A stretch of DNA of 64,000 bases from the NCBI GenBank assembly GCA_038061695.1, contig JBBTYT010000001.1, positions 1,339-65,338 of the forward strand, in the 5' to 3' direction. Numbering within the stretch: the stretch's first letter is position 1; each line of letters opens with the position of its first letter. Origin of the DNA: Patescibacteria group bacterium. Its GTDB lineage: Bacteria; Patescibacteriota; Minisyncoccia; GWC2-36-17; M10-OD1-4. Shown in pieces: positions 2,456 to 18,141 of the stretch. The position numbers were made by a program, and so were the translations under genes. The notes under the pieces were generated by a model. The model did not search any database and was not told where the DNA came from. It was given only the letters and a program-made list of their open reading frames with translations.

Positions 2456-3832
2456 ATGATATTAATGAAAAAGAAAAAGTATTACAAATTTAGAAAGTTA
2501 GAGGCGTTTTTTGCCGTTCTATTTTTTGTGATCTCACTTTCTTTTATTTTTTCTCAATGGAATTATAATCGTAATTCGCCGGCTCAGGCTTCAAGTCATC
2601 CAGTTAAGATTGTTGGAGCCGCTTGGTCAGGTAGTATTGGTTGGATATCTTTTGTTCCTAATTGTGATAAAGATGGTGATGGTCTTTCTGATGGAGGAGT
2701 CGGATGTCCGCCAGCTCTGGATCCTGTTATTACTTATGGTATTTTGCTAGATACGCCAACCGATAATCTTTCAGGAAAAGCTTGGTCTGATTCAGTAGGT
2801 TGGATATCTTTTAATATTGCAGATTTAGCAGGTTGTCCAGATATATTTCCAGGTGATGTAGAGTGTCAGCCAAGGATTGTTGGTGGTAATGTTCTAGGTT
2901 GGGCAAGAGCGCTTAATACTAGCGGTGGTGGCTGGGATGGCTGGATATCTCTCTCTTGTCTTAATTCAGGTGTTTGCGGCACATCTTATTATCAGGTATT
3001 ATTTTCTTTAGCAACAGGAGAGTTTTCAGGGAGCGCATGGGGTGATGTAGTTATTGATTGGGTATCATTTAAGGGTCCAACTTATGGCGTTACAACCGCT
3101 CCAACTACTCCAACTGTTACGGCAAACTCAGTATCAATATTGGATTATTGTGTTGATAATAGAACTCCGGTATTCGTATTCACTTATGATTCTTCTAATT
3201 ATTATCCTATGACTAGTTATGAAATAGTAGTGACTAAGGTTGGGGATGTTCTTCCTTTTAGTAGCATATCAGGACTTCTATCTGTATCTCCTGGTGAATC
3301 TCGCTCTATTACATATACCGGAGCCCCACTTGATAGAAGCGGAGTTGTTGGTATTGATACAGGTTATAACTGGAGTATAAAAGTTACAAATACCGCCGGA
3401 GTGGATTCTTCTTTCACGGATATGGCAGGGAGTCCAGATGTTTTAATAGAGTTTAATAAGAGACCTGTAGTTGATTTTACTTGGGATCCGCTTCTAGTTT
3501 TTCCTGATATAGATATAGATTTTATAAGCGGTGGTTTTGCGGTATGTTATGATTACGATGCTATTGCTGGTAACGATCTTCCTAGGGATTGTACATCGGT
3601 GGATGGTGATACATTTTTATGGGATATTGTTCCTGGCGCGACTTATGTTGGCGGGTCATCAAATGCTTCTGCTGATCCAGTAGTAAATTTTCCTACTTCA
3701 GGAACAAAAATAGCCCAATTAAATATATGGGGAGTAGGCTTTAATACACTTGATGTAGGAGAGTCTTGCCAAATAATAAAAACTTTAGCTGTGAGAAAGC
3801 CAGCTCCAAAATTTCAAGAACAAAGACCATAA
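2456..3832 (+). CDS. Secreted/membrane-anchored hypothetical protein with four W-x4-GWISF-like repeats. It sits first in the pilus locus and is a candidate pilus-associated adhesin.
   Basis: N-terminal TM segment AFFAVLFFVISLSFIF. Repeats AAWSGSIGWISF, KAWSDSVGWISF, GGWDGWISL and SAWGDVVIDWVSF. Lies immediately upstream of pilM. Confidence 0.5.
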   Translation: MILMKKKKYYKFRKLEAFFAVLFFVISLSFIFSQWNYNRNSPAQASSHPVKIVGAAWSGSIGWISFVPNCDKDGDGLSDGGVGCPPALDPVITYGILLDTPTDNLSGKAWSDSVGWISFNIADLAGCPDIFPGDVECQPRIVGGNVLGWARALNTSGGGWDGWISLSCLNSGVCGTSYYQVLFSLATGEFSGSAWGDVVIDWVSFKGPTYGVTTAPTTPTVTANSVSILDYCVDNRTPVFVFTYDSSNYYPMTSYEIVVTKVGDVLPFSSISGLLSVSPGESRSITYTGAPLDRSGVVGIDTGYNWSIKVTNTAGVDSSFTDMAGSPDVLIEFNKRPVVDFTWDPLLVFPDIDIDFISGGFAVCYDYDAIAGNDLPRDCTSVDGDTFLWDIVPGATYVGGSSNASADPVVNFPTSGTKIAQLNIWGVGFNTLDVGESCQIIKTLAVRKPAPKFQEQRP

Positions 3833-3842
3833 ATTTTTTCAA

Positions 3843-4922
3843 ATGAAACTAAACTTAAATTCAAAAATAGATTTTTTAAGTATTTTTCGTGAACATACAT
3901 TTTTAGGTGTTGATATAGGCACATCATCAATAAAAATAGTTCAGCTTACCAGGAGCGGATTAAAATATAAACTTGATACTTATGGTGAAATTCATTTTTT
4001 TTCAAAAAATGAGAATAAAGAATCAGGAGATTCATTAAAAATGTTGGATAATGATGTTGCCTTTTTATTAAAAAAGATAATATTAGAGTCTGGTGCAAAG
4101 GCAAAGAGAGTGGTTATGAGTGTTCCTATATTCTCATCTTTCTCAATCATTATAGATATGCCTGATTTACCAAGAAATGAATTGACAAAAGCTATAGAAT
4201 TCCAAGCTAGACAATATGTCCCGATTCCTGTTAATCAAGTTGTTTTGAGTTATAATATTATAGGAAGAAAAGAGAATGCATCCGGTAATAATATATTACA
4301 GATTCTTTTAGTGGCGATACCGAATGAAGTAAGAGATAAATATTTTAATATAGCAAATATAGCAGGTGTCAAACTTGTATCTTTGGAGGTGGAAACGCTT
4401 CCAATGGTGCGGTCTGTTCTTAAAAATCTTAAAGAGACAGTCATGATAATTGATTTGGGTTTAAAGTCTACTAATTTTTGTATAGTAGATAACGGTGTTG
4501 TGAGATTATCTCATAATTACGATATATCAGGCAGTTCTATAACGCAAGCATTTTTAGGTTTTTCAGGTGGAGATTATAAGAAGGCGGAAAGTCTTAAAAA
4601 AACGATGGGTTTAAATATGACGCCCGGACAAAAAGAGATGGCAAGAGATGTTTTTCATACTATAAATATTATTACAGCAGAAGCAGATAGAATTATGAGC
4701 AGTTATTTTAATAAGTCTAATGTTAGAATGGAAAAGATTATTTTAAGTGGAGGCTCTGCTAATATGTTTGGCCTCAAGGAATATTTTGCAGATAGATTAA
4801 ATTTAGAGGTCGTTGTTGTTGATCCATTTTCAGGTATTATCTATCCAAAAGAATTAGAGAATATTTTGAAAGATATAGGTCCATCTTTTGCTATTGCCTT
4901 AGGACTTGCGATGCGGAAATAG
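3843..4922 (+). CDS. pilM: Type IV pilus assembly protein PilM (actin-like ATPase)
   Basis: LGVDIGTSSIKIVQL phosphate-1 motif; about 360 aa; followed by pilN/pilO-like genes. Confidence 0.75.
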   Translation: MKLNLNSKIDFLSIFREHTFLGVDIGTSSIKIVQLTRSGLKYKLDTYGEIHFFSKNENKESGDSLKMLDNDVAFLLKKIILESGAKAKRVVMSVPIFSSFSIIIDMPDLPRNELTKAIEFQARQYVPIPVNQVVLSYNIIGRKENASGNNILQILLVAIPNEVRDKYFNIANIAGVKLVSLEVETLPMVRSVLKNLKETVMIIDLGLKSTNFCIVDNGVVRLSHNYDISGSSITQAFLGFSGGDYKKAESLKKTMGLNMTPGQKEMARDVFHTINIITAEADRIMSSYFNKSNVRMEKIILSGGSANMFGLKEYFADRLNLEVVVVDPFSGIIYPKELENILKDIGPSFAIALGLAMRK

Positions 4923-5026
4923 GTTTTAGGTGCTAGGAATTTTTTATTTTGAATATATATTGTTAATGTAGTATAATTAAAAAGTTAAAACATAAAAGCT
5001 AACAGCTATAACTTAAAACCTAAAAA

Positions 5027-5551
5027 ATGCCAGATATTTCATTATTACAAAGTGATTACGAAGTGGTTTTGAAGGAAAGTAGAATCCCTAGTATTTTTCT
5101 TACTGTTTCCATAATACTTCTCGTAGTGAGTATAGGTTCATATGTTGGTCTTTTTTTCTATCACGCCACATTAGCTGAGAATTTGAAGCAGGTTTCCATT
5201 GCCATAGAGAGTCTAAGTATTGAAAATGCTTCAAATGAAGCTGGCAGGCTAAGTAAGATGGGCGGTCAATTAGATGTTATTCAATATTTGAGAGAGTTGC
5301 ATACGGATGCGAACGCATCTTTAGCGGTAATTGCAAAATCAGTTCATCCTAAAGTTTATTATAAAGATGCAGATATAAATTTAGTTCAAGGTGAAGCAAA
5401 ATTAACCGGTATTGCTTTGACACCTAAGTCTTTATCAGAGCAAGTGATGATGTATGCCGGAGAGAAGAATATATTAAGCTACGATATTTCCAATATCTCT
5501 TTAGTTAATGATAATGTTAAATTTGAATTAAACTTAAAGATTAAAAAGTAA
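5027..5551 (+). CDS. pilN: PilN-like type IV pilus inner-membrane assembly protein
   Basis: Single N-terminal TM (IFLTVSIILLVVSIGSYVGLFF) followed by a periplasmic region; position after pilM. Confidence 0.5.
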   Translation: MPDISLLQSDYEVVLKESRIPSIFLTVSIILLVVSIGSYVGLFFYHATLAENLKQVSIAIESLSIENASNEAGRLSKMGGQLDVIQYLRELHTDANASLAVIAKSVHPKVYYKDADINLVQGEAKLTGIALTPKSLSEQVMMYAGEKNILSYDISNISLVNDNVKFELNLKIKK

Positions 5552-5557
5552 GTTTTT

Positions 5558-6133
5558 ATGAATAAGGAATACATAACAGGGACAATCTTTCTTATCATCG
5601 CTGTGATTATCTATATTATTTTTATTGAACCAAAATATGCCGAAGTCAAAGTTACAGCAGAGTCTCTTATTGTAAAAAATAATGAGTTTGATGGTTATAG
5701 CGCTTTTATAAAAGATATTGGAAATATAGTTAAAGAATCAGAAGGAGATTTAAAAAGTATTCAAAAAATAGATTCTATCTTACCAGCATCTAAAAATACA
5801 TCTGATGTCCTTGTGAGACTTGATTATATTGCTTCTAGAAATGGACTACTAATGAAGGATGTGAAATTCTCAAATCCGGTGGCAAAATCTCAAAAAACAG
5901 GTAAATACTCAATTATAGATGTTAAGTTGTTTCTTTTAGGATCTTATAATTCATTTTTAAATTTTAGCAAAGATATAAAAAGTAGTAATCCTCTTATGGA
6001 TATAATAGATATCAAATTTTCCAATAATAAAAAAGATGAGGATAGAAACAAAGAGACGAAAGATGAAGTCGGATTATCTTTAGATCCAATTTTTGAATTT
6101 GAGATGAATATAAGTCTTTATTATCAATCTTAA
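5558..6133 (+). CDS. pilO: PilO-like type IV pilus assembly protein
   Basis: N-terminal TM (TIFLIIAVIIYIIFI), coiled-coil-like region, position between pilN and pilB. Confidence 0.45.
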   Translation: MNKEYITGTIFLIIAVIIYIIFIEPKYAEVKVTAESLIVKNNEFDGYSAFIKDIGNIVKESEGDLKSIQKIDSILPASKNTSDVLVRLDYIASRNGLLMKDVKFSNPVAKSQKTGKYSIIDVKLFLLGSYNSFLNFSKDIKSSNPLMDIIDIKFSNNKKDEDRNKETKDEVGLSLDPIFEFEMNISLYYQS

Positions 6134-6135
6134 TT

Positions 6136-6483
6136 ATGAATATTTCAATTAGAAACTTTTTACCGAAAAATGAAAAAACGAAGCAAGATTTAATGACGAT
6201 TATTTTAATAATCTCAACTTTAATAGTTTTTGTTATGATTTATAACTCTTATTTTAAAAAGGCACCCATTATCTCTGTTGTTGATGATGTAAAAAAGACA
6301 TCAGTTGGCGTTATTTCTTCTGCTGAAGCATCAAGGATTATTGTTGATAAAGTGAAAAAAGATATAAAAAGAATACAAGATGAATTAAAAAATCCTTTTT
6401 ACTCCTCTTTAAAAAAATATGAACCTGCAAGCAGTGAGATGGTGAGTCCAGGAAGAGGTAATCCATTCGTTAATACTTTTTAA
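6136..6483 (+). CDS. Small single-pass membrane protein, hypothetical (PilP-position protein)
   Basis: TM LMTIILIISTLIVFVMIY; 2-nt gap from pilO; no recognisable motif. Confidence 0.4.
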   Translation: MNISIRNFLPKNEKTKQDLMTIILIISTLIVFVMIYNSYFKKAPIISVVDDVKKTSVGVISSAEASRIIVDKVKKDIKRIQDELKNPFYSSLKKYEPASSEMVSPGRGNPFVNTF

Positions 6484-6504
6484 ATGATGAATTGATATTT
6501 TTTT

Positions 6505-8214
6505 ATGCAAAAAACACTCATAGATATATTAATAGCTTTAGGCAAAGTATCAGAAAACGATGCTAAGCTTTTAAGGCAAAATTTAACCACCTCTAAAATG
6601 ACAGAGGAGGATTTTTTATTGACTAAGTTTTCGGAAGATATTATTTTTAATGCAAAAAGTAAGTTTTACGGAGTACCACTTAAAGAGATAGCCGAAGATT
6701 ATCGCATTACAAGTTGGGCTTTATCTCAAATCCCGGAAGAAACGGCAAAGACATATAAATTCATACCGCTTAAGAAAGAGGGGTCACTTTTGGAATTAGG
6801 TATGGTTCATCCGCAAGATATGATGGCATCAGATGCTGTGAAATTTATTTTAACAAGTAAAAATCTCAATGCTAATATTTTTTTAATAACGAATACTCAA
6901 TTTGACTCTCTATTTAAACAATACTCTGCTATTGGAGTTAAAGTGCAAGAGGCTATTTCAGAAATTCAAGAAGATGTGGTTCCTGAGATAAAAATCAATT
7001 CGGACGATGGTAGTAAAATTCTTGCGGAGGCCCCAATAAATAAAATAGTCAATGTGATTTTTAAACATGCTTATGAAGGAGGAGCATCCGATATACATAT
7101 TGAGCCGATTGATGATAATACGCGTATAAGATTTAGAGTTGATGGTGTGTTGCACGCATCTTTATACTTGCCAAAGGAGACTCACAGCGCCATAGTTTCT
7201 AAGATTAAGATATTATCAAATCTTAAGATAGATGAATCAAGAATACCTCAGGATGGAAGATTTAGACAGATAATGTATGATCATCCAGTGGATTTTCGTG
7301 TTTCAACATTTCCAACCACTTCAGGAGAAAAGGTTGTTATTCGTATTTTAGATTCATATTCTGGATTAAAGAAAATAGAAGATCTTGGTTTTGTTGGTTA
7401 TTCTTACGATAAGATAATGGAAGCTCTAAAAAGACCATTTGGTATGGTTCTTACAACCGGACCCACCGGTTCAGGAAAATCTACAACACTACAATCAATG
7501 CTCGGTATTTTAAATAAAGAAGAGGTTAATGTGGTAAGCTTAGAGGATCCTGTAGAATATTACATATCAGGAGTTAATCAATCTCAAGTAAGACCTGAGA
7601 TCCAATATACCTTTGCTTCAGGCTTAAGGAGTATATTGCGTCAAGATCCGAATGTTATTATGGTTGGTGAGATAAGAGATAAAGAGACAGCTAACCTAGC
7701 TACTCATGCCGCACTTACAGGGCATATAGTTTTGTCAACAATTCATACGAATGATGCCCTTGGTGTAATACCCAGGCTTATTGATATGGGCGTGGAGTCA
7801 TTTTTGTTGCCACCGGCATTGAATTTAGTTATAGCGCAAAGATTAGTAAAAAAATTATGTGTCTCTTGTAAAACTACATATAAGCCTGAAGGTAGAGCAA
7901 GGGAAATATTAAATGAGGTTATATTGGGGATGCCTAAGTTTTTACAAGATGAATTAAATAAAAATGAAGTAAATATATGTCAAGCTAAAGGGTGTCCAAA
8001 GTGCTCCGGTAAAGGGACGAAGGGGAGAATAGTTATTTTTGAAGTTATAGAGATGACAAAGGAGTTAAGGGATATAATAATAAATGGACAATTTAACGCA
8101 AAGATTGAAGAGGAAACTAAAAGACAGAATATGATAACGATGAAACAAGATGGTATTATTAAGGTGTTAAAAGGTATTATTTCGCTAGAAGATGTTGTAC
8201 AAGCAACAGTTTAG
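6505..8214 (+). CDS. pilB: Type IV pilus assembly ATPase PilB (GspE family)
   Basis: N-terminal GspE_N-like region, Walker A GPTGSGKSTTL, Asp box, His box and a CxxC...CxxC tetracysteine (CVSCK...CPKCSGKG). Confidence 0.85.
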   Translation: MQKTLIDILIALGKVSENDAKLLRQNLTTSKMTEEDFLLTKFSEDIIFNAKSKFYGVPLKEIAEDYRITSWALSQIPEETAKTYKFIPLKKEGSLLELGMVHPQDMMASDAVKFILTSKNLNANIFLITNTQFDSLFKQYSAIGVKVQEAISEIQEDVVPEIKINSDDGSKILAEAPINKIVNVIFKHAYEGGASDIHIEPIDDNTRIRFRVDGVLHASLYLPKETHSAIVSKIKILSNLKIDESRIPQDGRFRQIMYDHPVDFRVSTFPTTSGEKVVIRILDSYSGLKKIEDLGFVGYSYDKIMEALKRPFGMVLTTGPTGSGKSTTLQSMLGILNKEEVNVVSLEDPVEYYISGVNQSQVRPEIQYTFASGLRSILRQDPNVIMVGEIRDKETANLATHAALTGHIVLSTIHTNDALGVIPRLIDMGVESFLLPPALNLVIAQRLVKKLCVSCKTTYKPEGRAREILNEVILGMPKFLQDELNKNEVNICQAKGCPKCSGKGTKGRIVIFEVIEMTKELRDIIINGQFNAKIEEETKRQNMITMKQDGIIKVLKGIISLEDVVQATV

Positions 8215-8249
8215 TAGTTTTTAGTATTATAAATATAAAGTTTTAAAAT

Positions 8250-8624
8250 ATGGATAGAAAAAAAATTTTAATAATAGAGGATGATGCTCTTTTGTCCAAT
8301 ATGTATCAGACAAAATTTAATTCTGAAGGATTTTGTATGATAGTGGTTGCTGATGGCGAGTCTGGTATCAAGCTTTTATCAGAAGGTCTTAATCCAAGTA
8401 TGGTGTTGCTTGATATTGTTATGCCAAAAATGGATGGTATAGAGGTTCTTGAAAAAATAAAGCAAATGGAGATATGTAAAGATGTGCCGGTTATAATGTT
8501 AACAAATTTAGGACAGAAGGAGAATATTGATAAAGCTACGAAGTCTGGTGCCGTAGGTTATATTGTAAAGGCGAATTATACGCCATCCGAAGTTGTGAAA
8601 AAAGTTAGAGAAATTATAGGCTAG
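8250..8624 (+). CDS. Single-domain response regulator receiver (CheY-like) embedded between pilB and pilT
   Basis: KILIIEDD acidic pocket, phosphoacceptor in MVLLDIVMPKMDG, TNLGQ, K in GYIVKA; 124 aa with no output domain. Confidence 0.75.
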   Translation: MDRKKILIIEDDALLSNMYQTKFNSEGFCMIVVADGESGIKLLSEGLNPSMVLLDIVMPKMDGIEVLEKIKQMEICKDVPVIMLTNLGQKENIDKATKSGAVGYIVKANYTPSEVVKKVREIIG

Positions 8625-8650
8625 ATTAATTAAATGATTTTTTAAATATT

Positions 8651-9718
8651 ATGAATGATTTAAAAAGAGAATTTGAGGCGTTGCTTTACGAGGTTGTTGC
8701 AAGAAAGGCATCTGATTTACATTTATCAATAGGAAGGAAACCTCAATTTAGAATAGACGGCTCTCTGGTTACTTTTGAAGAGGCGGATATCATAAGTGAA
8801 AAGAAGGGTAATGATTTAATGTCTATTCTTATGAGTGAGAATCAGAAAGAAAGATTTTTGGAAAATAGAGAAATAGATTTTTCATATACAGTTGATGGTA
8901 TAGGAAGATTTCGCGTTAATGTTTTTTTTCAGAGAGGTAATTTTTCAGTAGCCTTAAGACTTATTCCAAGCTCTATACAGACATTGGACGAACTTGGACA
9001 TCCTGATGTTTTGCATGATCTTTTAAAAACTTCACAAGGATTTTTTATTGTTGTCGGTCCTTCAGGTCAAGGTAAATCTACTACGCTCGCATCAATGATA
9101 GATGAAATAAATCATCAAAGGAAAAATCATATAGTTACAATAGAGGATCCGATAGAGTATTTATTTGAAGATATTAAATCAATTATTGATCAGAGGGAGG
9201 TTGGTAATGATACAAAAGGTTTTAATGTGGCATTGCGTTCTGTTTTGCGTCAGGATCCAGATGTTATTATGGTTGGTGAAATGAGGGATTCAGAAACAAT
9301 ATCAGCGGCTATTACCGCTTCGGAAACAGGACATCTTGTTTTTTCAACATTGCATACGAATAATGCTTCACAAACAATAGATAGAATAATAGACTCTTTC
9401 CCACCGGCGCAACAGAGTCAGATAAAGGCTCAACTTGCAGGAACGCTTTTAGGGGTTCTTTCAAAGAGGTTAATTCCAAGGATAGACGGAGGTAGAGTAG
9501 CGGCATTTGAGCTTCTAATAGCAAATTCAGCTGTTAGAAATCTAATTAGAGAAGGAAAGACACATCAAATTGATCTTGTTATTGAAACATCAGCAGATAT
9601 AGGTATGGTATCTTTAAATAAATCGCTTTCTTATCTTGTAAAAAGCGGAATTATTACTATGGAGAACGCCGAGATGCACTCTCTTAACCCAGTGGAATTA
9701 AGGATGCTTATTAAATAG
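8651..9718 (+). CDS. pilT: Twitching motility/retraction ATPase PilT
   Basis: Walker A GPSGQGKSTTL; 355 aa; lacks a GspE_N domain; AIRNLIREGK motif typical of PilT. Confidence 0.8.
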   Translation: MNDLKREFEALLYEVVARKASDLHLSIGRKPQFRIDGSLVTFEEADIISEKKGNDLMSILMSENQKERFLENREIDFSYTVDGIGRFRVNVFFQRGNFSVALRLIPSSIQTLDELGHPDVLHDLLKTSQGFFIVVGPSGQGKSTTLASMIDEINHQRKNHIVTIEDPIEYLFEDIKSIIDQREVGNDTKGFNVALRSVLRQDPDVIMVGEMRDSETISAAITASETGHLVFSTLHTNNASQTIDRIIDSFPPAQQSQIKAQLAGTLLGVLSKRLIPRIDGGRVAAFELLIANSAVRNLIREGKTHQIDLVIETSADIGMVSLNKSLSYLVKSGIITMENAEMHSLNPVELRMLIK

Positions 9719-9773
9719 AGGTTTTTAAGTATTAATCTAAAACCTAAAAACTATAACCTAAGACCTAGAAAAA

Positions 9774-10979
9774 ATGTTATTTAAATACGAAGCAAAAACA
9801 TATCAAGGTGAAACAAAGAATGGGACGATTGAAGCATCATCACAGAGTATTGCTGTTGACATACTACAAAAAAGCGATTTAATACTTCTTGATATTGTTG
9901 AGGCGTCAGATATTTCATTAGCTACAAAAAAGCTTAAGTTTTTTGAACATATTCCAAAGAAAGAAGTTTTTATGTTTTCTCGCCAGCTTTCTGTTTTATT
10001 TGAAGCTAAGGTTCCTGTTGTGGAATCTTTACGCACAATGATTGATCAAACAAGAAGCGTAGCATTTAAAGAGATTTTGGAAAAAGTAACAAAGAGCGTT
10101 AATGATGGAAATCCTTTATCAAAATCTTTTGCAGAACATAAAAAAGTTTTTTCTGATTTTTATATAAGCATTGTGAAGTCTGGTGAGCTTTCAGGAAATC
10201 TTGAAACCGTTTTCTCTTATTTAGCCGAGTCTCTTGAAAGAGATTATTATTTAACACAAAAAGTCAGAGGCGCAATGATTTATCCCGCATTTATTATATT
10301 TGCAATGATTGCCGTTACATTTGTGATGATGATTTGGGTTATTCCTAATCTTACTTCTGTTTTTACAGAATCAAATATGGAGTTGCCTTTTTTAACTCAA
10401 ATTATAGTTAATATATCAGATGTATTTCAAGAGTTTTGGTGGTTAATACTTTTTGTTTTGGTTGGTGGAGCGACTGGTTTTTGGCAGTGGGTATCAACTG
10501 AAAATGGTAAAATGATCTGGGGCTCAATCCAGCTTGAAATACCAGTTTTTGGCGAGATTTTAACAAAATTTTATCTTGCAAGATTCTCAGATTCTTTAAG
10601 CACATTAATAGTCGGTGGATTGCCAATTGTAAAATCACTAGAGACTTCTGCTGATGTCGTAGGTAATTATACATATAAAAAAATCTTAAGAGAGACTATT
10701 GATGTTGTAAAAAAAGGAGGAACTATAAGTTCAGTTTTTAGAAGATATAAAGAAGTTCCAATTATGGTTACTCAAATGATTTCAATAGGTGAGCAAGCAG
10801 GTAAGCTGGATGGCACATTGAAGACAATTTCTAAATTTTATAGCAAGGAAGTTGAGAGTGCTATGGATAATATGGTGACATTAATAGAGCCATTACTTAT
10901 TTTGGTGTTAGGAACAGGAGTAGGAATATTGATAGTCGCAATTTTAATGCCGATGTATAATCTTACCGCCGCTATATAG
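9774..10979 (+). CDS. pilC: Type IV pilus platform protein PilC (GspF family)
   Basis: 401 aa with duplicated GspF-like halves, three TM segments, C-terminal ILMPMYNL. Confidence 0.8.
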   Translation: MLFKYEAKTYQGETKNGTIEASSQSIAVDILQKSDLILLDIVEASDISLATKKLKFFEHIPKKEVFMFSRQLSVLFEAKVPVVESLRTMIDQTRSVAFKEILEKVTKSVNDGNPLSKSFAEHKKVFSDFYISIVKSGELSGNLETVFSYLAESLERDYYLTQKVRGAMIYPAFIIFAMIAVTFVMMIWVIPNLTSVFTESNMELPFLTQIIVNISDVFQEFWWLILFVLVGGATGFWQWVSTENGKMIWGSIQLEIPVFGEILTKFYLARFSDSLSTLIVGGLPIVKSLETSADVVGNYTYKKILRETIDVVKKGGTISSVFRRYKEVPIMVTQMISIGEQAGKLDGTLKTISKFYSKEVESAMDNMVTLIEPLLILVLGTGVGILIVAILMPMYNLTAAI

Positions 10980-11020
10980 TTTTTAGGTTATAGTTGCTAG
11001 GTTTTAGTTGTTAAAAATTT

Positions 11021-11389
11021 ATGGTTAAAATTAACTCTTATAAAGATTTAATCGTATGGCAAAGGTCTATGCAATTAGTTGAAAATATTTATAAAATAAC
11101 TGAGAAATTTCCCAAAGAAGAAATTTATGGTCTGACTGCGCAAATGAGAAGATCTGCCGTATCAATTCCTTCAAACATAGCAGAAGGAAGTTGTAGGGGA
11201 ACAAGAAAGGATTACGCGCAATTTTTAAGAATGGCATATGGATCTGGCGCTGAGCTTGAAACACAAATAGAGATAGCAAAAAGATTACTAGGAAAACAAA
11301 AAATTGATTATTCTGACGTTGATAAATTTTTAGATGAAGTAATGAAGATGCTTAATTCTTTAATAAAAAGACTAACCACCAACATCTAA
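11021..11389 (+). CDS. Four-helix-bundle protein (TIGR02436 / 23S rRNA intervening-sequence protein family)
   Basis: YKDLIVWQRSMQLVENIYKIT...EEIYGLTAQMRRSAVSIPSNIAEGSCRG...AYGSGAELETQIEIA is a near-textbook match to the family consensus. The gene is flanked by inverted repeats 10981-11012 and 11388-11424. Confidence 0.85.
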   Translation: MVKINSYKDLIVWQRSMQLVENIYKITEKFPKEEIYGLTAQMRRSAVSIPSNIAEGSCRGTRKDYAQFLRMAYGSGAELETQIEIAKRLLGKQKIDYSDVDKFLDEVMKMLNSLIKRLTTNI

Positions 11390-11542
11390 CAACTAAAACC
11401 TAGAACCTAAAATCTAGCACCTAGTGAAAGAGTTATTCACAGCTGTATTCAATTTAAAGTTGTTAAAATAAATATTTACTTGTATAATATATGAATATGA
11501 TAAATAAATAATTTATTCAAGGTCGAAAGTTAATCAAATCTT

Positions 11543-12052
11543 ATGAGCCACTTAAGCTTAGGGCTTATGAGAATATTAAAGAAAATTATGAAAAGAAATC
11601 AAAAAGGTTTTACGCTTATCGAACTTTTAGTCGTTATCGCTATTATCGGTATATTGTCTTCTATCGTTTTAGTCTCTTTGAATACTGCCAGAGTAAAAGC
11701 TAGAGATGCTAAGAGAACAGCGGATATGCAAGCAATTTCTACAGCTCAGGTTTTATTTGCTGATTCTCAGACAGCATTTAGATATGTAGCAGTTTCAGCT
11801 GCCGCTTGTACTGGCTGGGATGGTGTTAATTGTCCTCTTGTTACAGACGGAGTTCCAGCATTTTCTACTCTTATGCCAGTATTACCTGTTAATCCTTCAG
11901 CAACAGGACTTTATCATTATAAGAATGTTGGTTCTGATTCTACATATTGTGTAGCGGCTGATTTAGAGTCACCTGCTGGAGATGCATTTGTTTGTACTTC
12001 TGTGCGTTGCGCTAAGTTAACTGTTGTATCTACTGCTTGTGTAGAACAGTAA
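11543..12052 (+). CDS. Type IV major pilin (class III signal peptide; prepilin)
   Basis: Leader ...KRNQKG then FTLIELLVVIAIIGILSSIV (G-1, F+1, E+5). Followed by a strong rho-independent terminator. Confidence 0.85.
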   Translation: MSHLSLGLMRILKKIMKRNQKGFTLIELLVVIAIIGILSSIVLVSLNTARVKARDAKRTADMQAISTAQVLFADSQTAFRYVAVSAAACTGWDGVNCPLVTDGVPAFSTLMPVLPVNPSATGLYHYKNVGSDSTYCVAADLESPAGDAFVCTSVRCAKLTVVSTACVEQ

Positions 12053-12080
12053 TTTAGATTCTATTTAATTTAAAATAAAA

Positions 12081-12118
12081 ATTAGCGCACAATATTGTGT
12101 GCTAATTTTTATTTTTTT
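12081..12118 (+). terminator. Rho-independent terminator after the major pilin gene
   Basis: Perfect hairpin TTAGCGCACAA-TAT-TGTGTGCTAA followed by a T-run. Confidence 0.7.
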
Positions 12119-12168
12119 GGAAGTATGATATAATAAATATATCTTTTAATAAATTTTAATCTTAATTT

Positions 12169-12846
12169 ATGAAATATAATATTTTAAAGATGACATTTTT
12201 AATAACTTCTTTTGCTATGCTTTCATTTGTCGGCGCTATCTTAATTAAAAATTCCTACGCTCAGTGGGTTGGCCCCACTGGCGCGCCTCCATCAAATAAT
12301 ACATTGCCCTCTTTAAATACAGGAATTACAGATCAGATAAAAACAGGCGGTTTAACAGTTGGAAGATTAAACACATCAGGGAATATAACTGCAGGCGGAA
12401 TTATTTGTGATTCTTCGGGGTGTATAAATTCTTCTGCTTTAGAAGCAGATCCAACAGTTCTCGCATCTGTTAAAGATGGAGTATCTTGGGCTGAGCTTGC
12501 AACTGTTCCAGCAGGTTTCTTAGATGGTATTGATAATGTTGGAGCAGTTGTCGCAGAAACAGATCCAACAGTTCTCGCATCTGTTAAAGATGGAGTATCT
12601 TGGGCTGAGCTTGCAACTGTTCCAGCAGGTTTCTTAGATGGTATTGATAATGTTGGAGCAGTTACTCTCAATAGTGTTGGAACTAATGAAGTTATTGATG
12701 GCTCTCTAATGATGTCAGATATGAATGCCACGGTTATTCAGGCTAGAATTTCGGGTACTTGTTTATCAGGTATTTCCGTTGTGAATTCAAATGGAACCGT
12801 TGGTTGTGTAGTGGCTGGTTCATCGGAAGCTGTTTACGCTCCATAA
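12169..12846 (+). CDS. Secreted hypothetical protein containing a perfect 38-aa tandem duplication
   Basis: Signal peptide MTFLITSFAMLSFVGAILI. DPTVLASVKDGVSWAELATVPAGFLDGIDNVGAV occurs twice (nt 12448-12549 and 12562-12663, identical). Minus-strand ORF 12333-12731 is its antisense shadow. Confidence 0.6.
   Translation: MKYNILKMTFLITSFAMLSFVGAILIKNSYAQWVGPTGAPPSNNTLPSLNTGITDQIKTGGLTVGRLNTSGNITAGGIICDSSGCINSSALEADPTVLASVKDGVSWAELATVPAGFLDGIDNVGAVVAETDPTVLASVKDGVSWAELATVPAGFLDGIDNVGAVTLNSVGTNEVIDGSLMMSDMNATVIQARISGTCLSGISVVNSNGTVGCVVAGSSEAVYAP
12448..12663 (+). repeat. Two identical 102-bp copies in direct tandem with a 114-bp period (12-bp spacer)
   Basis: The 102-bp unit GATCCAACAGTTCTCGCATCTG...GTTGGAGCAGTT is repeated with 100 percent identity. 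Confidence 0.85.
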
Positions 12847-12863
12847 TTTTGAATTAGAAGATT

Positions 12864-13553
12864 ATGAAAAAAACAATAATAATAACAATAATATTTATAC
12901 TTATTACTATAGTTGTTTTTTCTATTTTGTACTTTTCTTTTTCTTTAAAAAAAGGTGAAGATCTAAGTAATGTTACTACATTAAATGAGAGAGAAATTCA
13001 AAAAAATACTCTTGAGATTATAAAAACAAAAGACTTTTCTCTATGCGAAAATATAAGTGATATTACATATAAATCTGTTTGTATAAATAATATTGCGATG
13101 ATGTTAGCAAAAGAGAGCGGCGATATCTCTTATTGTCAAAAAATGGATGGTAAATTAATAACAACTCAAGAGTGTGAAATACAAACTCTCTCTGTAAAAC
13201 TTTCTGAGAGCGGTGATGCAACCTTATGCGATAAATTCACTAATCAAGTATCTAAAGATGATTGTAAAAATGGTTTTTATTTAAGTGTTTCACAAGAGAA
13301 AGGCGATATTTCTTTATGCAAAAATATAAAAAATAAAACAGATTCAGATTTATGTATTAATTCTTACAATACAAGGAAAGTTTTCTTAAATGATCCGGCT
13401 AACTTTGATTGTTCTTTGATGATTGGTGATGATGCAATATCCGATTGCAAGAAAGTAAAAGATATTATAAGTGATTTTGGTAATAATGTCATTTTGTCGC
13501 CGGATAAATGTTTGCAACTCAAAACATCTTTATTTTCAACTTATTGTATATGA
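12864..13553 (+). CDS. Secreted Cys-rich repeat protein, hypothetical
   Basis: N-terminal TM IIITIIFILITIVVFSILYF; four to five repeats of C-x(10-14)-SGD(I/A)S(Y/L)C. Confidence 0.5.
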   Translation: MKKTIIITIIFILITIVVFSILYFSFSLKKGEDLSNVTTLNEREIQKNTLEIIKTKDFSLCENISDITYKSVCINNIAMMLAKESGDISYCQKMDGKLITTQECEIQTLSVKLSESGDATLCDKFTNQVSKDDCKNGFYLSVSQEKGDISLCKNIKNKTDSDLCINSYNTRKVFLNDPANFDCSLMIGDDAISDCKKVKDIISDFGNNVILSPDKCLQLKTSLFSTYCI

Positions 13554-15070
13554 GATATATTTTTTTATTAATTTTTGCTTTTATATTATCTTCTTTCGGA
13601 ATCAAAGATGTTTTTGCGGCGGAAGGTGATCTTTTGTGGTCAAAAAGCATAGATCAGACATCTAGCCAAGATTCGGCAACAGCTATTGCCGTTGATGCAT
13701 CCGGTATTTATGTTGCCGGGCGTATCCAGAATGTTACTGGCTATGATGCTAAGATAGATAAGTTGTCGCTAGACGGGACAACTGTCATAGCAAGCAGAAT
13801 ACTGAATATAGCAAATCCTTATAGAGCGGAGATCACAGATATAGCTTTAGATGCCACTGGTATATATATATCAGGATATAAGTATGCTTGTTGTCTAGCA
13901 TGGGACCTTGAATGGTTTGTAAAGAAAATATCTTTAGATTTAACAACAGAGATCTGGTCTGATAATCAAAATTATACTGTTGGCGGTAGTACTGAAGATA
14001 CGGCAAATAGCATTGCTGTTGACGCTACTGGTCTTTATGTTGGCGGTTCTATTTTACATGGAGGCGCTGGAAGCAAGTGGCGGTTAGAAAAAAGAAGCTT
14101 AACTACCGGTATTGTCTCGGATTTTGCGATAATAGATGTTGGACCAACCGGTATGTATAATAATCTTAAAAGTATTGATATTGATGCAACAAGTATTTAT
14201 TTAGCTGGTTCTTTTTCTGATTCTTCAAGTAATAAGAATTGGAGGATAGAGAAAAGGGCGATTTCTAACTTAAATACTATTATCTGGGCAAGGAATGTTG
14301 GAACGGGTGCAAATAATATACCTTATAGCATTGCTGTTGATGCTACTGGTGTTTATGTTGGCGGTACTTTTACAACTTGGAATATAAAAAAGCTTTCTAT
14401 TGTTGATGGTACTGTTATTTGGAGTAGAAGTGATTCCACTGTAGTGAACGGCTATCCTGCTAGTATTGATCTTGGAGCACCAGGTAATATCTACTCTATT
14501 GGATATGATATAAAAGTAGGTTCTGATTCTTGGTGGCATTTTGATAAGAGAGATACAAATGGAAATCTTTTGTGGTCGCAAGAAGAAAATCCATCTCTTA
14601 ACTTTGATATTCCATTTGGGGTAGTTATTGATTCTGCAAGCAATGGCATTTATGTAGTTGGCTATGACGCTATTTTAGGAAATGCTAATATTGAGTGGCG
14701 AATAGAGAAGAGAACGCTTTCTCTTATTTGTACTGGTCAAAAAGTATTTGTCTGGACGGATCCTGCTTTAACTGCTGGTCTTACAAAAATAAGAAAGGTT
14801 CATATAGATGAGCTTCGTTCAAATATTAATATTATGCGTTTGGATGCCGGTTTAATAACTTTCTTGTGGACAGATCCTATTATTGCATCAGGAGCTACGA
14901 AGATTAGAGCAACACATATTCAAGAGTTGAGGACAGCTATATTAGATGTTTATACAGCTTGTGGTTCTATAGCGCCGGTCTTTTCTGACGCAACCTTAGT
15001 AGCTGGAACAACAAAAATAAGAAAAGTTCATATAGACGAACTTAGAAGTGCTGTAAATCTTGTTCCGTAA
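13550..15070 (+). CDS. Secreted beta-propeller (SBBP-type repeat) protein with three C-terminal roughly 30-aa repeats
   Basis: Signal peptide. Six or more repeats of (S/A)IAVDATG(I/L/V)YV(A/G)G, the SBBP beta-propeller signature. C-terminal triple repeat WTDPxLxAGxTKIRxxHIxELR. Start chosen at the ATG overlapping the upstream stop (ATGA). Confidence 0.55.
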   Translation: MRYIFLLIFAFILSSFGIKDVFAAEGDLLWSKSIDQTSSQDSATAIAVDASGIYVAGRIQNVTGYDAKIDKLSLDGTTVIASRILNIANPYRAEITDIALDATGIYISGYKYACCLAWDLEWFVKKISLDLTTEIWSDNQNYTVGGSTEDTANSIAVDATGLYVGGSILHGGAGSKWRLEKRSLTTGIVSDFAIIDVGPTGMYNNLKSIDIDATSIYLAGSFSDSSSNKNWRIEKRAISNLNTIIWARNVGTGANNIPYSIAVDATGVYVGGTFTTWNIKKLSIVDGTVIWSRSDSTVVNGYPASIDLGAPGNIYSIGYDIKVGSDSWWHFDKRDTNGNLLWSQEENPSLNFDIPFGVVIDSASNGIYVVGYDAILGNANIEWRIEKRTLSLICTGQKVFVWTDPALTAGLTKIRKVHIDELRSNINIMRLDAGLITFLWTDPIIASGATKIRATHIQELRTAILDVYTACGSIAPVFSDATLVAGTTKIRKVHIDELRSAVNLVP

Positions 15071-15073
15071 TAT

Positions 15074-15847
15074 ATGATATTATTTTTTATATTTTTATTC
15101 GGTCTTATAATCGGTTCTTTTTTGAACGCCGTCATATATCGCCTTGAGGTTGGCGGTTCTTTGGTTACAGAGAGATCTCGCTGTCCGCTTTGTGGAGGTA
15201 CATTAAGCTGGTATGAGCTTATACCTCTTCTATCTTTTTTATTTCAAAAAGGACGCTGTCTTTCTTGCGGTGAGAAGATATCTTGGCAATATCCCATAGT
15301 AGAGCTTTTAACAGGATTTTTATTTCTTTTGACAGCTTTTTTAAAAGAGGGTTCTCTTTTAGATATGACACCAGTAGATATTATATATATTTTTATCGTC
15401 ATGACCTTTTTGGTCTTGATATTTATTTTTGACGGAAAACATTATATAATACCTAATGTAGCTATTTATCCGCTCATTGCTATGTCATTCTTTTACAATA
15501 TATATTCTTTAGGTATTACAGGGCTTTATTACTTTTTAGGAGCATTTATAGCATCGGGGTTTTTTCTTCTGCTTTATCTTATCTCTTCAGGCAAGTGGAT
15601 AGGTATGGGGGATGTAAAGTATGGTGCATTTATGGGTTTTTTCTTACCATGGACGAATGTTCTAGTTGCTCTTTTTATCGCTTATGTTATCGGTGCTATT
15701 TTTGGACTAGCTCTATTGTATTTAAGAAAGAAAGGCTTAAAAAGTGAGATTCCATTCGGTCCATTTTTAATTATAGGGACATTGATAGCATATTTTTTTG
15801 GAACTGATATATTAAGCTGGTATCTAGGCGGAGTTTTTTCTTTTTAG
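15074..15847 (+). CDS. pilD: Prepilin peptidase PilD (A24 family)
   Basis: CPLCGGTLSWYELIPLLSF...GRCLSCGEKISWQYP zinc tetracysteine; polytopic membrane protein; GMGDVKYG catalytic-Asp region. Confidence 0.8.
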   Translation: MILFFIFLFGLIIGSFLNAVIYRLEVGGSLVTERSRCPLCGGTLSWYELIPLLSFLFQKGRCLSCGEKISWQYPIVELLTGFLFLLTAFLKEGSLLDMTPVDIIYIFIVMTFLVLIFIFDGKHYIIPNVAIYPLIAMSFFYNIYSLGITGLYYFLGAFIASGFFLLLYLISSGKWIGMGDVKYGAFMGFFLPWTNVLVALFIAYVIGAIFGLALLYLRKKGLKSEIPFGPFLIIGTLIAYFFGTDILSWYLGGVFSF

Positions 15848-15943
15848 TTGTTAGCTTTTAGAATTAAAATAAAAGAAAAGATAAAAGTGTAAAATGCAAA
15901 GCGAAAAGTTCAAAATAACGACGCAAAATAGAAATAATAAAAT

Positions 15944-16540
15944 ATGCAAAATCTAAAATCTAAAACCTATAACCTAAAACCTAGCGAGGGCTTTACATTG
16001 ATAGAAATTATAATTGCCTCAGCGGTAATAGCTATAGTTTCTATTATAACTGTAGTTAAGGTAGGTACTGGAAATCAGGAACAGGCACTTTTAAGATCTG
16101 CTCAAAAGCTCGCGTTAGATCTAAGGAGGGCTCAAAATTTAGCACTTTCTCCATTAACTACTGATAATTGTGTTTATGGTGTTACAGGAAAAACGACCAG
16201 TTCTGATAGCTATATTCTTTATGTGGCAACTAGCACATGCGACTCTTTTAGTGATAGGAGCTTCCCAAACACCGGCTCTTATAGCGTCTGTAATGTTGAT
16301 GATGGTTGTCTTGGTAGGTATGAATTTGAGGACGGTGTTGTATTACAGACGGGTAATAATTTTGATATTTCATTTCTTCCTCCAGAACCAATATCTCTTT
16401 CTAATGGCAGAACTGCTGGTCCGCCTGGTTCTGCTTTCAATCCTGGAGGAATAGAAACAATCACCATTAGGTTAGCTAATAATATTGCAAGAGAAAAAAA
16501 AGTAGTAGTAAATAAATTTGGAAATATTGAAATACAATAA
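15944..16540 (+). CDS. Minor pilin / pseudopilin (type IV prepilin-like)
   Basis: Leader MQNLKSKTYNLKPSEG then FTLIEIIIASAVIAIVS. The internal ORF 16170-16454 is an artifact. Confidence 0.7.
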   Translation: MQNLKSKTYNLKPSEGFTLIEIIIASAVIAIVSIITVVKVGTGNQEQALLRSAQKLALDLRRAQNLALSPLTTDNCVYGVTGKTTSSDSYILYVATSTCDSFSDRSFPNTGSYSVCNVDDGCLGRYEFEDGVVLQTGNNFDISFLPPEPISLSNGRTAGPPGSAFNPGGIETITIRLANNIAREKKVVVNKFGNIEIQ

Positions 16541-16578
16541 ACGAGGTTTTAGGTTATAGCTTTTAGCTTATAGAATTT

Positions 16579-17145
16579 ATGAAAAAAATTATATTAAAAT
16601 TTAATAAAACTCTAAAACCTAAAACCTATAACCTAAAATCTAATAGGGGTTTTACTATAGTTGAATCCTTGGTTGCTATAACTATTTTGACTGTTGGCGT
16701 GTCAGCCTCAATAGGAGCTATAATGAGCTCTATTCAACTAGTCTCTAAGACAGAAAATAGAACAATAGCTGTTGGTTTGGCGCAAGAGGGTGTTGAGATT
16801 GTAAGAAATATGAGAGATTTAAATTGGATAGATGGCAATACGCCATGGGATTTGGGGTTAACTGATGATATATTAATCAGTGGTGGTTTCAAAACAGGAT
16901 GCGTTGAGTTTGATAGCGTCTCGTTTGATGTTAATTGTGTTGTCGGCACTTCTTATACTATGAAGCTTATTGATAATGCTGGTAATTTATATTACGGACA
17001 TGATCAATTGAGTCCGGCTACTATATTTTCAAGAACGATTACCTTAACAAGGATCAGCGCTGATGAGATTGTAGTGCGATCTTTGGTTGCTTGTGGAGTG
17101 AATTGCAATATTTCTGTAGAGGAACATTTATTTAATTGGCAGTAG
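16579..17145 (+). CDS. Minor pilin / pseudopilin
   Basis: Leader ...LKPKTYNLKSNRG then FTIVESLVAITILTVGVSA. Confidence 0.7.
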   Translation: MKKIILKFNKTLKPKTYNLKSNRGFTIVESLVAITILTVGVSASIGAIMSSIQLVSKTENRTIAVGLAQEGVEIVRNMRDLNWIDGNTPWDLGLTDDILISGGFKTGCVEFDSVSFDVNCVVGTSYTMKLIDNAGNLYYGHDQLSPATIFSRTITLTRISADEIVVRSLVACGVNCNISVEEHLFNWQ

Positions 17146-17170
17146 ATATTCTTTTAACTCGTAGAATAAT

Positions 17171-17713
17171 ATGATAAAAAATAGAAAATTTATAAAAGAA
17201 AAAAATGGATATACATTAATTGAATTAATGCTTGCTATATCTATTTTTTCTATCGCCGTATCAATATGCGTTAATATGTTTATTAACGCTATAAAGCTTC
17301 AAAGAAGCGCTATAGCAGTTCAAAATGTTTCCGATAATGGAAGATATATTATGGAAATAATAGCGAGGGAGATAAGAACAGGAAAAGTTAATAGTTTTAT
17401 TCTTAATGGCACTGATGATCTTTCCTTTCAGAGTAATTCTCCAAATAGAGCTGGAAATACATTAAAATTTTACTTATCCTTATCCGGAGATCAATTAATG
17501 TTTGATGATAATACCGCTGATGCCTTAGAAGCTTTATCTGTAACAGCAACTAATAATGTCGTAGTAACTTTTTTAAGATTTGAAATTCAAAATTCCACAA
17601 AACAACCAAGAATAACAATTTTTTTAAATGTTCAATCTAAAAATCCGCCAGTTGACTCTCAAGATGAAATTTATTTACAGACAACTATTTCGCCAAGAGA
17701 GCTAAGACAATAA
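17171..17713 (+). CDS. Minor pilin / pseudopilin
   Basis: Leader MIKNRKFIKEKNG then YTLIELMLAISIFSIAVS. Confidence 0.7.
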   Translation: MIKNRKFIKEKNGYTLIELMLAISIFSIAVSICVNMFINAIKLQRSAIAVQNVSDNGRYIMEIIAREIRTGKVNSFILNGTDDLSFQSNSPNRAGNTLKFYLSLSGDQLMFDDNTADALEALSVTATNNVVVTFLRFEIQNSTKQPRITIFLNVQSKNPPVDSQDEIYLQTTISPRELRQ

Positions 17714-17718
17714 TAAAT

Positions 17719-18141
17719 ATGAAAAAAATATTTAAAAAAAATGAAAATGGTATAGCTATTTATCTTTCAATCTTAATATTGGCTTCCGTCGTTTCTGTGG
17801 CTTTATCAGTCTCAAGTTTATTGATAGGTGAATTTAAAATATCAGGGGATTTACAGGAATCTTCGGCATCCATTTATGTGGCAGATTCTGGACTTGAGGC
17901 GGCGCTTTATAGTGTTAGACTTGAAACGCTTCTGGCAGGAATATATCCTTGTTCAGATCCTCAATTATTAGGAGCCGCAACAACTATGAATTGTTCTGTT
18001 ACGGTTGATACAGCTTATATAGATATTAATAATTCGCTCTGCAATAATGTACCTTATGATTGTACAAGTATTGTATCTACAGGGCAGAATAATGACGGTA
18101 CATATTTTAGGAAGCTTCAGGCAATATATCAAAATAGATGA
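17719..18141 (+). CDS. PilX-like minor pilin
   Basis: N-terminal hydrophobic IAIYLSILILASVVSVALSV then SIYVADSGLEAALYSV, which resembles the PilX_N AAEAGLE motif. Stop overlaps the ligA start (ATGA). Confidence 0.5.
   Translation: MKKIFKKNENGIAIYLSILILASVVSVALSVSSLLIGEFKISGDLQESSASIYVADSGLEAALYSVRLETLLAGIYPCSDPQLLGAATTMNCSVTVDTAYIDINNSLCNNVPYDCTSIVSTGQNNDGTYFRKLQAIYQNR

Follow-up and report, generated by a model that had tools for sequence, protein, structure and literature searches.

The question raised by the gene cluster at positions 2456-18141 of the 64,000-nucleotide (nt) stretch analyzed here (contig JBBTYT010000001.1; the whole stretch is called the window below) is whether it represents an ordinary type IV pilus operon of its lineage or an exceptional one, with a regulator and adhesins of its own. 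The initial annotation described a complete type IV pilus locus with an embedded orphan receiver domain and three secreted repeat proteins, in a genome of the Candidate Phyla Radiation (CPR) type; the last point is borne out by the source record, which bears the name Patescibacteria group bacterium. Our analysis indicates, with a probability that we put at about 70%, that the cluster is a conserved Parcubacteria-type pilus operon accompanied by a receiver gene, a GWISF/PKD partner gene, a portable surface-protein cassette, and a cassette and repeat arrays of the intervening sequence (IVS) type. This reading draws on the gene content and order, the residues of the receiver, the scattered distribution of the three surface-protein genes, and the inverted arrays, which overlap both stop codons and codons of the leaders.

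The gene order was compared with that of related loci. One genome per species was scanned with the PilB protein, which yielded 80 loci with PilB identity of 40-53%, and the open reading frames (ORFs) of these loci were labelled by phmmer, with the window proteins as queries. Their titles name mostly Patescibacteria lineages (Staskawicz-, Moran-, Uhr-, Wildermuth-, Kaiser- and Adlerbacteria, among others), and a minority are labelled otherwise, e.g. as uncultured Bdellovibrionales or Gammaproteobacteria. The order common to them is pilM-(pilN)-(pilO)-pilB-[receiver]-pilT-pilC-pilin(s)-pilD-three minor pilins-pilX-like-ligA. Such an order, shared down to ligA across the 80 CPR loci, identifies the window locus as a standard Parcubacteria-type operon, and the comparison of synteny recommended in the initial annotation thus turned out in favor of conservation. 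Indeed, a type IV pilus operon has already been reported in the OD1 core genome (PMC4508563), and the window locus is in this respect an ordinary CPR pilus operon which adds little, such operons being known core equipment of Parcubacteria. It resembles the pilus clusters of Parcubacteria/OD1 and Saccharibacteria (PMC4508563; TM7x type IV pilus locus one, PMC11623550) in the grouping of PilB, PilT, PilC, PilM/N/O, PilD and several pilins, in the lack of a secretin in the cluster, and in its ultra-small host with a reduced genome. Compared with them, it adds the GWISF/PKD gene, the three-gene surface cassette and the IVP/heptamer elements discussed below.

All genes of the locus lie on the + strand, as do nearly all genes of the window (G+C about 33%), and ligA follows directly; on the other side, a clpB-like gene reads leftwards from about 2335 and is separated from the pilus locus by a 120-nt divergent spacer. 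The 20 locus genes and 20 further ORFs of the window, among them every ORF of at least 273 amino acids (aa), were scanned with Pfam profiles. The scan confirmed the core genes of a complete pilus locus, all on one strand: PilM (3843-4922; PF11104, 140 bits), PilO (5558-6133; PF04350, a weak match of 26.8 bits at a cut-off of 22), the extension ATPase PilB (6505-8214; T2SSE, PF00437, 412 bits, and MshEN, 36 bits), the retraction ATPase PilT (8651-9718; PF00437, 174 bits; 355 aa, without an N-terminal domain), the platform protein PilC (9774-10979; two T2SSF domains, PF00482, 196 bits) and the prepilin peptidase PilD (15074-15847; A24_N_bact, 112 bits, and Peptidase_A24, 56 bits). The prepilin motif (N_methyl) occurs in only four ORFs of the window, namely those of the major prepilin (11543-12052; 43.7 bits, cleavage site G22|FTLIE) and of minor pilins 1 (mp1, 15944-16540; 25.1 bits), 2 (mp2, 16579-17145; 25.4 bits) and 3 (17171-17713; 27.8 bits). 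Two entries of the component list proposed earlier were assigned without a Pfam match. The PilN-like protein (5027-5551) is recognized by its position and a single N-terminal transmembrane segment, with phmmer homologues at the same place in a few relatives; the PilX-like protein (17719-18141; 140 aa with an N-terminal hydrophobic segment) is recognized by its position and by homologues at the equivalent place in many relatives. PilM, the PilN-like protein and PilO, together with a small GRxNPF protein, would form the alignment complex, with PilB and PilT as the motor ATPases and PilC as the platform; PilD would cleave one major and three minor prepilins, and the PilX-like protein would complete the set.

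Between pilB and pilT lies a CheY-like receiver gene (8250-8624; 124 aa, PF00072, 80.5 bits), which had been regarded as an unusual insert. This view is contradicted by the related loci. A receiver of 121-149 aa is found directly 3' of pilB in 50 of the 78 informative loci, 37 of which have the order pilB-receiver-pilT, 11 the order pilB-receiver-pilC without pilT, and 2 are at a contig edge; among the receiver-less loci, pilB adjoins pilT in 25 and pilC in 3. The receiver is no insert, but belongs to the conserved genes of the operon. The loci without pilT at that position are of the Uhrbacteria type (L025, L031, L035, L037, L042, L046, L054, L063, L068, L070 and L073), and most of these 11 have a larger GWISF-family gene (580-740 aa) 5' of pilM. 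A PilB-receiver fusion or intein was considered as the source of 2.4-kb tblastn matches in the receiver-less loci, and rejected: the PilB ORFs there are of 553-614 aa, and the long matches come from the adjacent PilT.

Residues E10, D11, D55, T85, Y104 and K107 of the receiver align with D12, D13, D57, T87, Y106 and K109 of Escherichia coli CheY. Each of the D/D/K columns of CheY D13, D57 and K109, as well as threonine or serine at T87, is kept in 51 of 52 sequences (the window protein, 50 orthologues and CheY). Absence of the phospho-acceptor aspartate had been named as an observation that would speak against the initial annotation; D55 occupies the column of CheY D57, and judging from the alignment the receiver appears functional. 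It has no output domain and is the sole receiver among the ORFs of the window. The PDB sequences closest to it are, first, a de novo designed protein, followed by generic CheY and RR468-type receivers. The search for a cognate kinase, also suggested earlier, was confined to the window, where the 40 Pfam-scanned proteins include no histidine kinase: HisKA occurs in none of them, and HATPase_c only in GyrB. The only related match there is a 409-aa membrane protein (38540-39769) with a C-terminal HAMP domain and without a kinase or other output domain, followed by a 365-nt spacer which holds only a 60-aa ORF.

How could such a protein act? The lack of an output domain, together with the fact that the gene stays beside pilB where pilT is absent, points to a direct, phosphorylation-dependent contact with the motor. 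One plausible scenario would be that the receiver, once phosphorylated at D55 by a kinase from another part of the genome, binds the motor, most likely PilB; this binding would bias the balance between extension and retraction. Single-domain response regulators are described as acting on the type IV pilus motor in Pseudomonas (PilG/PilH, of the Chp system), in cyanobacteria (proteins of PixG/PixH type) and in Xanthomonas (EmvR and DrdR); they are similar in being output-less CheY-like receivers tied to the function of pilB/pilT. In contrast to these systems, the gene described here is flanked by pilB and pilT, and no kinase of the CheA type or of any other is encoded in its vicinity; orthology to PilG/PilH is not implied. 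We found no mention in the literature of a receiver in CPR pilus clusters, and the texts of PMC4508563 and PMC11623550 do not mention one. A phosphorylatable receiver in 50 of 78 CPR pilus loci would offer a handle on control in organisms with very few signalling genes, and the organelle under that control is the only attachment and DNA-uptake organelle known in them.

Two further proteins recur in these loci. The first gene of the locus (2456-3832) encodes a 458-aa protein with an N-terminal transmembrane helix, four W-x4-GW[IV]SF repeats (residues ~50-215), an immunoglobulin (Ig)-like domain and a PKD domain. The initial annotation placed the W-x4-GWISF protein between the pilin and the peptidase; its gene is actually situated 5' of pilM. 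The window protein itself has no Pfam match. Its 509 homologues are essentially all from CPR, have 400-480 aa, carry PF00801 or PF18911, and are in many cases annotated as PKD domain-containing. A structure model (predicted local distance difference test, pLDDT, 84) consists of the membrane helix, a repeat domain with invariant Trp/Gly positions, and the Ig-like and PKD domains. The family profile matches the PKD domains of ColH (E=3e-19, profile positions 328-412), and for the GWISF repeat domain no structural match was found in the PDB. When the family profile was used, a homologue was found directly 5' of pilM in 15 of the 80 loci; two closer homologues are located beside a PilO-like gene (locus L092) and 5' of pilC and pilins (locus L094). 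The GWISF/PKD protein is thus a recurrent partner of CPR pilus loci, for which an envelope-side accessory role is plausible.

The second is the small transmembrane protein mentioned above (6136-6483; 115 aa), a conserved accessory gene product encoded just 5' of pilB and ending with GRGNPF. In 45 of 71 loci the gene at this place ends with [RK]-x(0-2)-[ND]PF, a motif of the G[RK]xNPF type. It has no Pfam match in the window. Although fast-evolving, otherwise divergent and unannotated, this small protein is conserved in CPR pilus operons and could act as another envelope-side accessory. Both proteins are recurrent, unannotated partners of the pilus machinery.

The conservation of the order down to ligA brings in the alternative that survives best, namely, that the locus encodes primarily a DNA-uptake (competence) pilus rather than one for attachment or motility, and that the downstream ligA reflects processing of incoming DNA. 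Indeed, ligA (18138-20237), encoding an NAD-dependent DNA ligase, comes directly after the pilus genes in at least 26 of the 80 loci (among L007-L075), its start being overlapped by 4 nt by the PilX-like gene in the window, and the type IV pilus, ComEC, ComF and DprA all belong to the Parcubacteria core gene set (PMC4508563). On the other hand, PilT together with PilM/N/O fits a retractile T4a-type pilus, which is able to serve both roles, and these are not exclusive; no com genes were found among the further window ORFs scanned; and such pili drive host binding and twitching in Saccharibacteria (PMC11623550). The linkage of ligA may reflect a functional tie to DNA uptake, or it may be merely a conserved operon structure. 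A primary role in competence is possible, with the odds clearly against it.

A separate problem is the presence of IVS-like cassettes in a protein operon, where they contribute coding sequence; this is the part of the locus which a specialist might not expect, and the evidence for it is computational. A gene of the 23S_rRNA_IVP family (11021-11389; PF05635, 130 bits), overlooked in the initial annotation, is situated in the spacer between pilC and the pilin gene, where it occupies the loop of a 51-nt inverted repeat with arms at 10977-11027 and 11373-11423; the whole element (10977-11423) is IVS-like. The arms are 76% complementary, with a 17-nt perfect core, and their duplex has a calculated energy of -46.1 kcal/mol (z -5.1). 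Both consist of 7-nt repeats, TAGnnnn in the left arm and nnnnCTA in the right one. Five TAGs follow one another at 7-nt spacing (10977, 10984, 10991, 10998 and 11005), beginning with the pilC stop codon, and TAGs spaced by 7 close all three reading frames. The stop codons of pilM and pilD are, likewise, each the first TAG of an array.

Period-7 arrays were detected by TRF on both flanks of the IVP gene and, in addition, at the junctions pilM|pilN, pilT|pilC, pilD|mp1 and mp1|mp2. In the pilM|pilN spacer (4920-5025), TAGs at 4920, 4927 and 4934 are followed by an array at 4980-5025, in a weak hairpin of -20.7 kcal/mol (z -1.75). The pilT|pilC spacer holds 4.4 copies of a CTAAAAC-type heptamer (9737-9767), whose hairpin is not significant. 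The arrays around the mp1 start (15845-15983), the left one running from the pilD TAG stop and the right one at 15948-15983, show no significant fold either. The hairpin at the mp1|mp2 junction (16544-16641) has an energy of -27 kcal/mol (z -5.3), with 0 of 200 shuffles as good, and the mp2 start at 16579 is inside it. The start codons of mp1 and mp2 thus sit between array arms, and translation of the right arms yields leader residues, KSKTYNLKP in mp1 and KTLKPKTYNLKS in mp2. The exact 9-mer TAAAACCTA occurs at 9 sites in 64 kb, versus 1.3 expected, and all 9 are in the pilus locus. Four of the five array junctions are devoid of an ORF, have the same heptamer unit as the IVP cassette, and no such arrays are present elsewhere in the 64 kb.

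The translated arms bear on the claim that all four prepilins have long leaders of 13-24 aa. For the minor pilins this holds true: each has a single possible start, so that the leaders of 16 (mp1), 24 (mp2) and 13 aa (minor pilin 3) are real. For the major pilin, the candidate starts Met1, Met9 and Met16 give leaders of 22, 14 or 7 aa, and the start may well be Met16, with the leader MKRNQKG. The leaders of relatives have 4-15 aa. In L090, a Logan contig with LigA 72% and PilD 62% identical to those of the window, all three minor pilins have 13-aa leaders and there are no heptamer arrays. Taken together with the translation of the right arms, this indicates that the 16- and 24-aa leaders are by-products of the repeat elements.

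The IVP cassette is not confined to this locus. IVP genes in L094, between pilC and pilins, and in Wolfebacteria are flanked by 42-47-nt inverted arms built of different heptamers. IVP genes in the loop of ~40-50-nt inverted repeats with TAG-containing, genome-specific heptamers were observed at 10977-11423 of the window, L094:10187-10632 and L086:2652-3137. We compared the flanks of 74 IVP genes from a metagenome scan with those of 51 control ORFs, which were random ATG ORFs and not curated genes, and found a median complementarity z of -2.9 versus -0.1 (Mann-Whitney p = 3e-10). The autocorrelation of the upstream flanks of the IVP genes peaks at lags 7 and 14 (0.42 at lag 7, baseline 0.27); these flanks contain a mean of 3.1 TAGs, against 0.43 in the controls, with all three frames covered in 46% and 0%, respectively. 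The co-directional ORF 5' of the IVP gene ends with TAG in 29 of 45 cases (baseline 25%). Such genes sit within operons, as exemplified by sdhA|sdhB, rmlB|rmlA and pyk|ppdk.

Two other roles of the IVP gene were tried and abandoned. As an accessory gene of a diversity-generating retroelement (DGR/Avd), this four-helix-bundle gene scored 29.6 bits with the bAvd model, below the cut-off of 40, and no reverse transcriptase domain was detected in the 40 Pfam-scanned window proteins. As a pilus component, it found no support in either direction: a pilus gene within 4 kb was present in 0 of 80 metagenomic IVP loci, and an IVP gene in 0 of 80 PilB loci. The former result implies that the cassette is a passenger. 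The second case of an IVP gene between pilC and a pilin gene, that of L094, may reflect a preference for this site, the sample being too small to say.

The known counterpart of the cassette is the IVS of 23S rRNA. In Coxiella it consists of a stem formed by a 28-bp terminal inverted repeat, the S23p ORF and tandem heptamers 5' of this ORF, and it is excised by RNase III (PMC4990558). IVP ORFs occur also in insertions of CPR 16S and 23S rRNA genes, and the domain was called functionally uncharacterised (10.1101/2024.02.27.582315). The window cassette shares with the rRNA elements of Coxiella and Leptospira (PMC4990558) the terminal inverted-repeat stem, the IVP ORF in the loop and the heptamers beside the ORF. 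It differs from them in being located in a protein-coding operon (pilC|pilin) instead of an rRNA helix, in heptamers that hold TAG and stop all three frames, and in having ORF-less copies at neighboring junctions, two of whose right arms are translated as prepilin leaders.

Short repeats that spread within a genome are known from other bacteria: the Rickettsia palindromic elements (RPE) can become coding sequence, and the cyanobacterial short tandemly repeated repetitive (STRR) sequences are heptamers in spacers. The likeness, judged by description and not by sequence, lies in this spreading; what sets the arrays described here apart from RPE and STRR is their association with an IVP gene and with stop codons.

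It is tempting, albeit tentative, to propose that S23p/IVP genes, discussed to date as cargo of rRNA intervening sequences, mark widespread, insulated hairpin cassettes between co-transcribed protein genes (sdhA|sdhB, rmlB|rmlA and pilC|pilA, for instance), which are flanked by inverted arrays of genome-specific TAG heptamers that halt translation in all frames, spawn ORF-less satellites nearby and are cut from mRNA by RNase III. The left arrays would insulate the cassettes from upstream translation. By analogy with the 23S rRNA IVS, RNase III would cut the stronger stems and split the polycistronic transcript, and this could uncouple the pilin gene from the machinery genes. The pilin gene is preceded by its own promoter-like site (11460-11488; a promoter scan is uninformative at the base composition of the window, with 85 sites found versus 84 expected) and followed by a terminator-like hairpin with a T run (12072-12114; a 20-bp stem in the spacer fold, -27.7 kcal/mol). 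The right arrays appear to have been taken over as coding sequence by mp1 and mp2, for their leaders. If this is true, IVP cassettes would have divided the pilus operon anew, into separately stable transcripts, and would have created new N-terminal coding sequence, that of two minor-pilin leaders. The IVP/heptamer cassettes also link a functionally uncharacterised family with a defined nucleic-acid architecture outside rRNA.

The heptamer arrays might instead have arisen by neutral slippage seeded at TAG stops, or might be DNA operators bound by a regulator, possibly IVP, that controls the pilus genes. Their confinement to the pilus locus within the 64 kb and the two array sites without a significant fold would agree with either version; a regulatory function of IVP would be in line with its weak match to the bAvd model, and proteins of the IVP family are basic helical-bundle oligomers. 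Both versions are rendered doubtful by the inverted, significantly complementary pairs that surround IVP genes in many genomes which are unrelated and differ in the sequence of the unit, which argues for selection on pairing and not for a fixed binding sequence. Moreover, the documented rRNA counterpart is a substrate of RNase III (PMC4990558).

The remaining feature in which the locus departs from its relatives is the slot between the major pilin gene and pilD, where the gap measures a median of 120 nt in relatives. The slot does hold three genes, as stated in the initial annotation; its list of them requires correction, since the W-x4-GWISF protein is encoded elsewhere and a fibre-repeat gene was overlooked. 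The latter gene (12169-12846; 225 aa as joined) encodes a secreted protein with a cleavable-looking signal peptide and a 38-aa unit, DPTV..DGVSW.EL..VPAGF.DG.DN (TRF period 114 nt, 2.0 copies, 99% matches). In the matching deposited contig CAYIOO010000004.1 (GCA_964365045.1; L001:14246-14345), window bases 12494 and 12495 are separated by a scaffold gap of 100 N. In the window the two sides of this gap are joined in frame, and Logan contigs L002 and L003 also end inside the gene, so that the count of two repeats is valid as joined only and may differ from the true copy number. A total of 686 representative proteins share the 38-aa unit, matched in up to 17 stretches of a single protein, and some of these relatives carry Peptidase_S74 or YadA_head, which are marks of fibre proteins; the window protein, interrupted by the gap, matches neither in Pfam.

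The second gene of the slot (12864-13553) encodes a membrane-anchored, Cys-rich repeat protein of 229 aa, with no Pfam match and with a single homologue in a word-index search. The third (13550-15070; 506 aa from the annotated start) encodes a secreted 7-bladed beta-propeller with three C-terminal helix repeats (model pLDDT 89.4). The propeller had been labelled as SBBP; the model supports the 7-bladed fold, and the Pfam SBBP repeat gave no match at E <= 0.01. There are 255 homologues of it in CPR, Bacteroidota and archaea, and its best Foldseek matches in the PDB are CylK, BamB and WD40 proteins. A PilY1-like identity of the propeller was tried and is unsupported: PilY1 is absent from the Foldseek PDB top 50, the PDB profile search gave designer propellers only, and Pfam revealed no PilY1/PilC. 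The homology and structure searches suggested for the repeat proteins have, then, yielded the propeller fold and the PKD domain, no PDB match for the GWISF repeat domain, and, by word index, one relative of the Cys-repeat protein. All three products of the slot have Sec-type N-termini without a prepilin motif, and hence they cannot be pilin subunits.

The distribution of the trio is scattered. All three lack homologues in the 80 related pilus loci. In Wolfebacteria, the closest full-length homologues of the Cys-repeat protein (30% identity, E=1e-34) and the propeller (43%) are encoded as a pair beside rpsB, away from pilus genes, and a further propeller homologue adjoins serS. L090 has the trio in the same order 5' of pilD, with the Cys-repeat protein at 34% and the propeller at ~41% identity. 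The initial annotation had specified that finding the repeat proteins apart from pilus genes in relatives would speak against it; this is the case beside rpsB and serS, and is not the case in L090. The trio is best regarded as a portable three-gene surface-protein cassette in a variable slot, whose products are not pilus subunits and which may be co-expressed with the pilus genes. In three other loci the slot has different cargo, namely, genes for polytopic membrane proteins of 680-814 aa and one that is glycosyltransferase-like (L040:8290-10332, L050:14705-16750 and L064:16390-20418), which may be pilin-modifying enzymes.

Pilin groups of Pseudomonas aeruginosa have a slot for accessory genes downstream of pilA (tfpO, tfpW-Z). 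The likeness to that slot and to PilY1 consists in lineage-specific accessory genes after the major pilin and in a 7-bladed propeller encoded next to minor pilins; the cargo here differs in being a trio found also away from pilus genes, with no detectable similarity to PilY1 or Tfp proteins. The idea that the receiver is an unusual insertion coupling some signal to this pilus, and that the repeat proteins are filament tip adhesins or host-attachment factors, can appeal to the position of these proteins inside the locus, their export signals, the trio retained 5' of pilD in L090, the fibre unit found in adhesin-like fibre proteins and the 7-bladed propeller of PilY1-type tip adhesins, but it is improbable given the receiver of most relatives, the absence of the trio from the 80 loci and its lack of linkage to pilus genes in Wolfebacteria and L091, the missing prepilin motifs, the lack of PilY1/PilC similarity by Pfam, Foldseek and PDB profile, and the terminator-like hairpin between the pilin gene and the trio. 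No positive support was obtained for the proposed role as tip adhesins.

Several observations weigh against the picture of a conserved operon with receiver, partner gene, portable cassette and IVS-type elements. The receiver is missing at its position in 28 of 78 loci, where it must be dispensable or encoded elsewhere. The kinase search, which covered 64 kb of the genome, found none, and the binding of the receiver to the motor is a step that we infer. The same applies to RNase III cleavage, which we infer from the rRNA elements, and two of the five array sites (pilT|pilC and pilD|mp1) fold no better than shuffles; the flank statistics depend on the random control ORFs described above. Finally, the retention of the trio in the pilus locus of L090, at a propeller identity of ~41%, may indicate some functional link to the pilus.

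Some minor features of the window should be mentioned. A Shine-Dalgarno-like purine run is absent before every start codon of the 20 locus genes, the upstream 25 nt being A/T-rich. The Rfam scan of the window revealed three tRNAs only and no rRNA. These tRNAs (tRNA-Met, tRNA-Met and tRNA-Asp) form a cluster at 22717-22995, just before a single 780-aa ORF (23120-25462) in which an N6 DNA methylase and a type I specificity (Methylase_S) domain are joined. Further downstream, a 207-aa protein (34626-35249) matches T4SS_pilin/TrbC, i.e. it is VirB2-like, which hints at conjugation-type genes elsewhere in the window.

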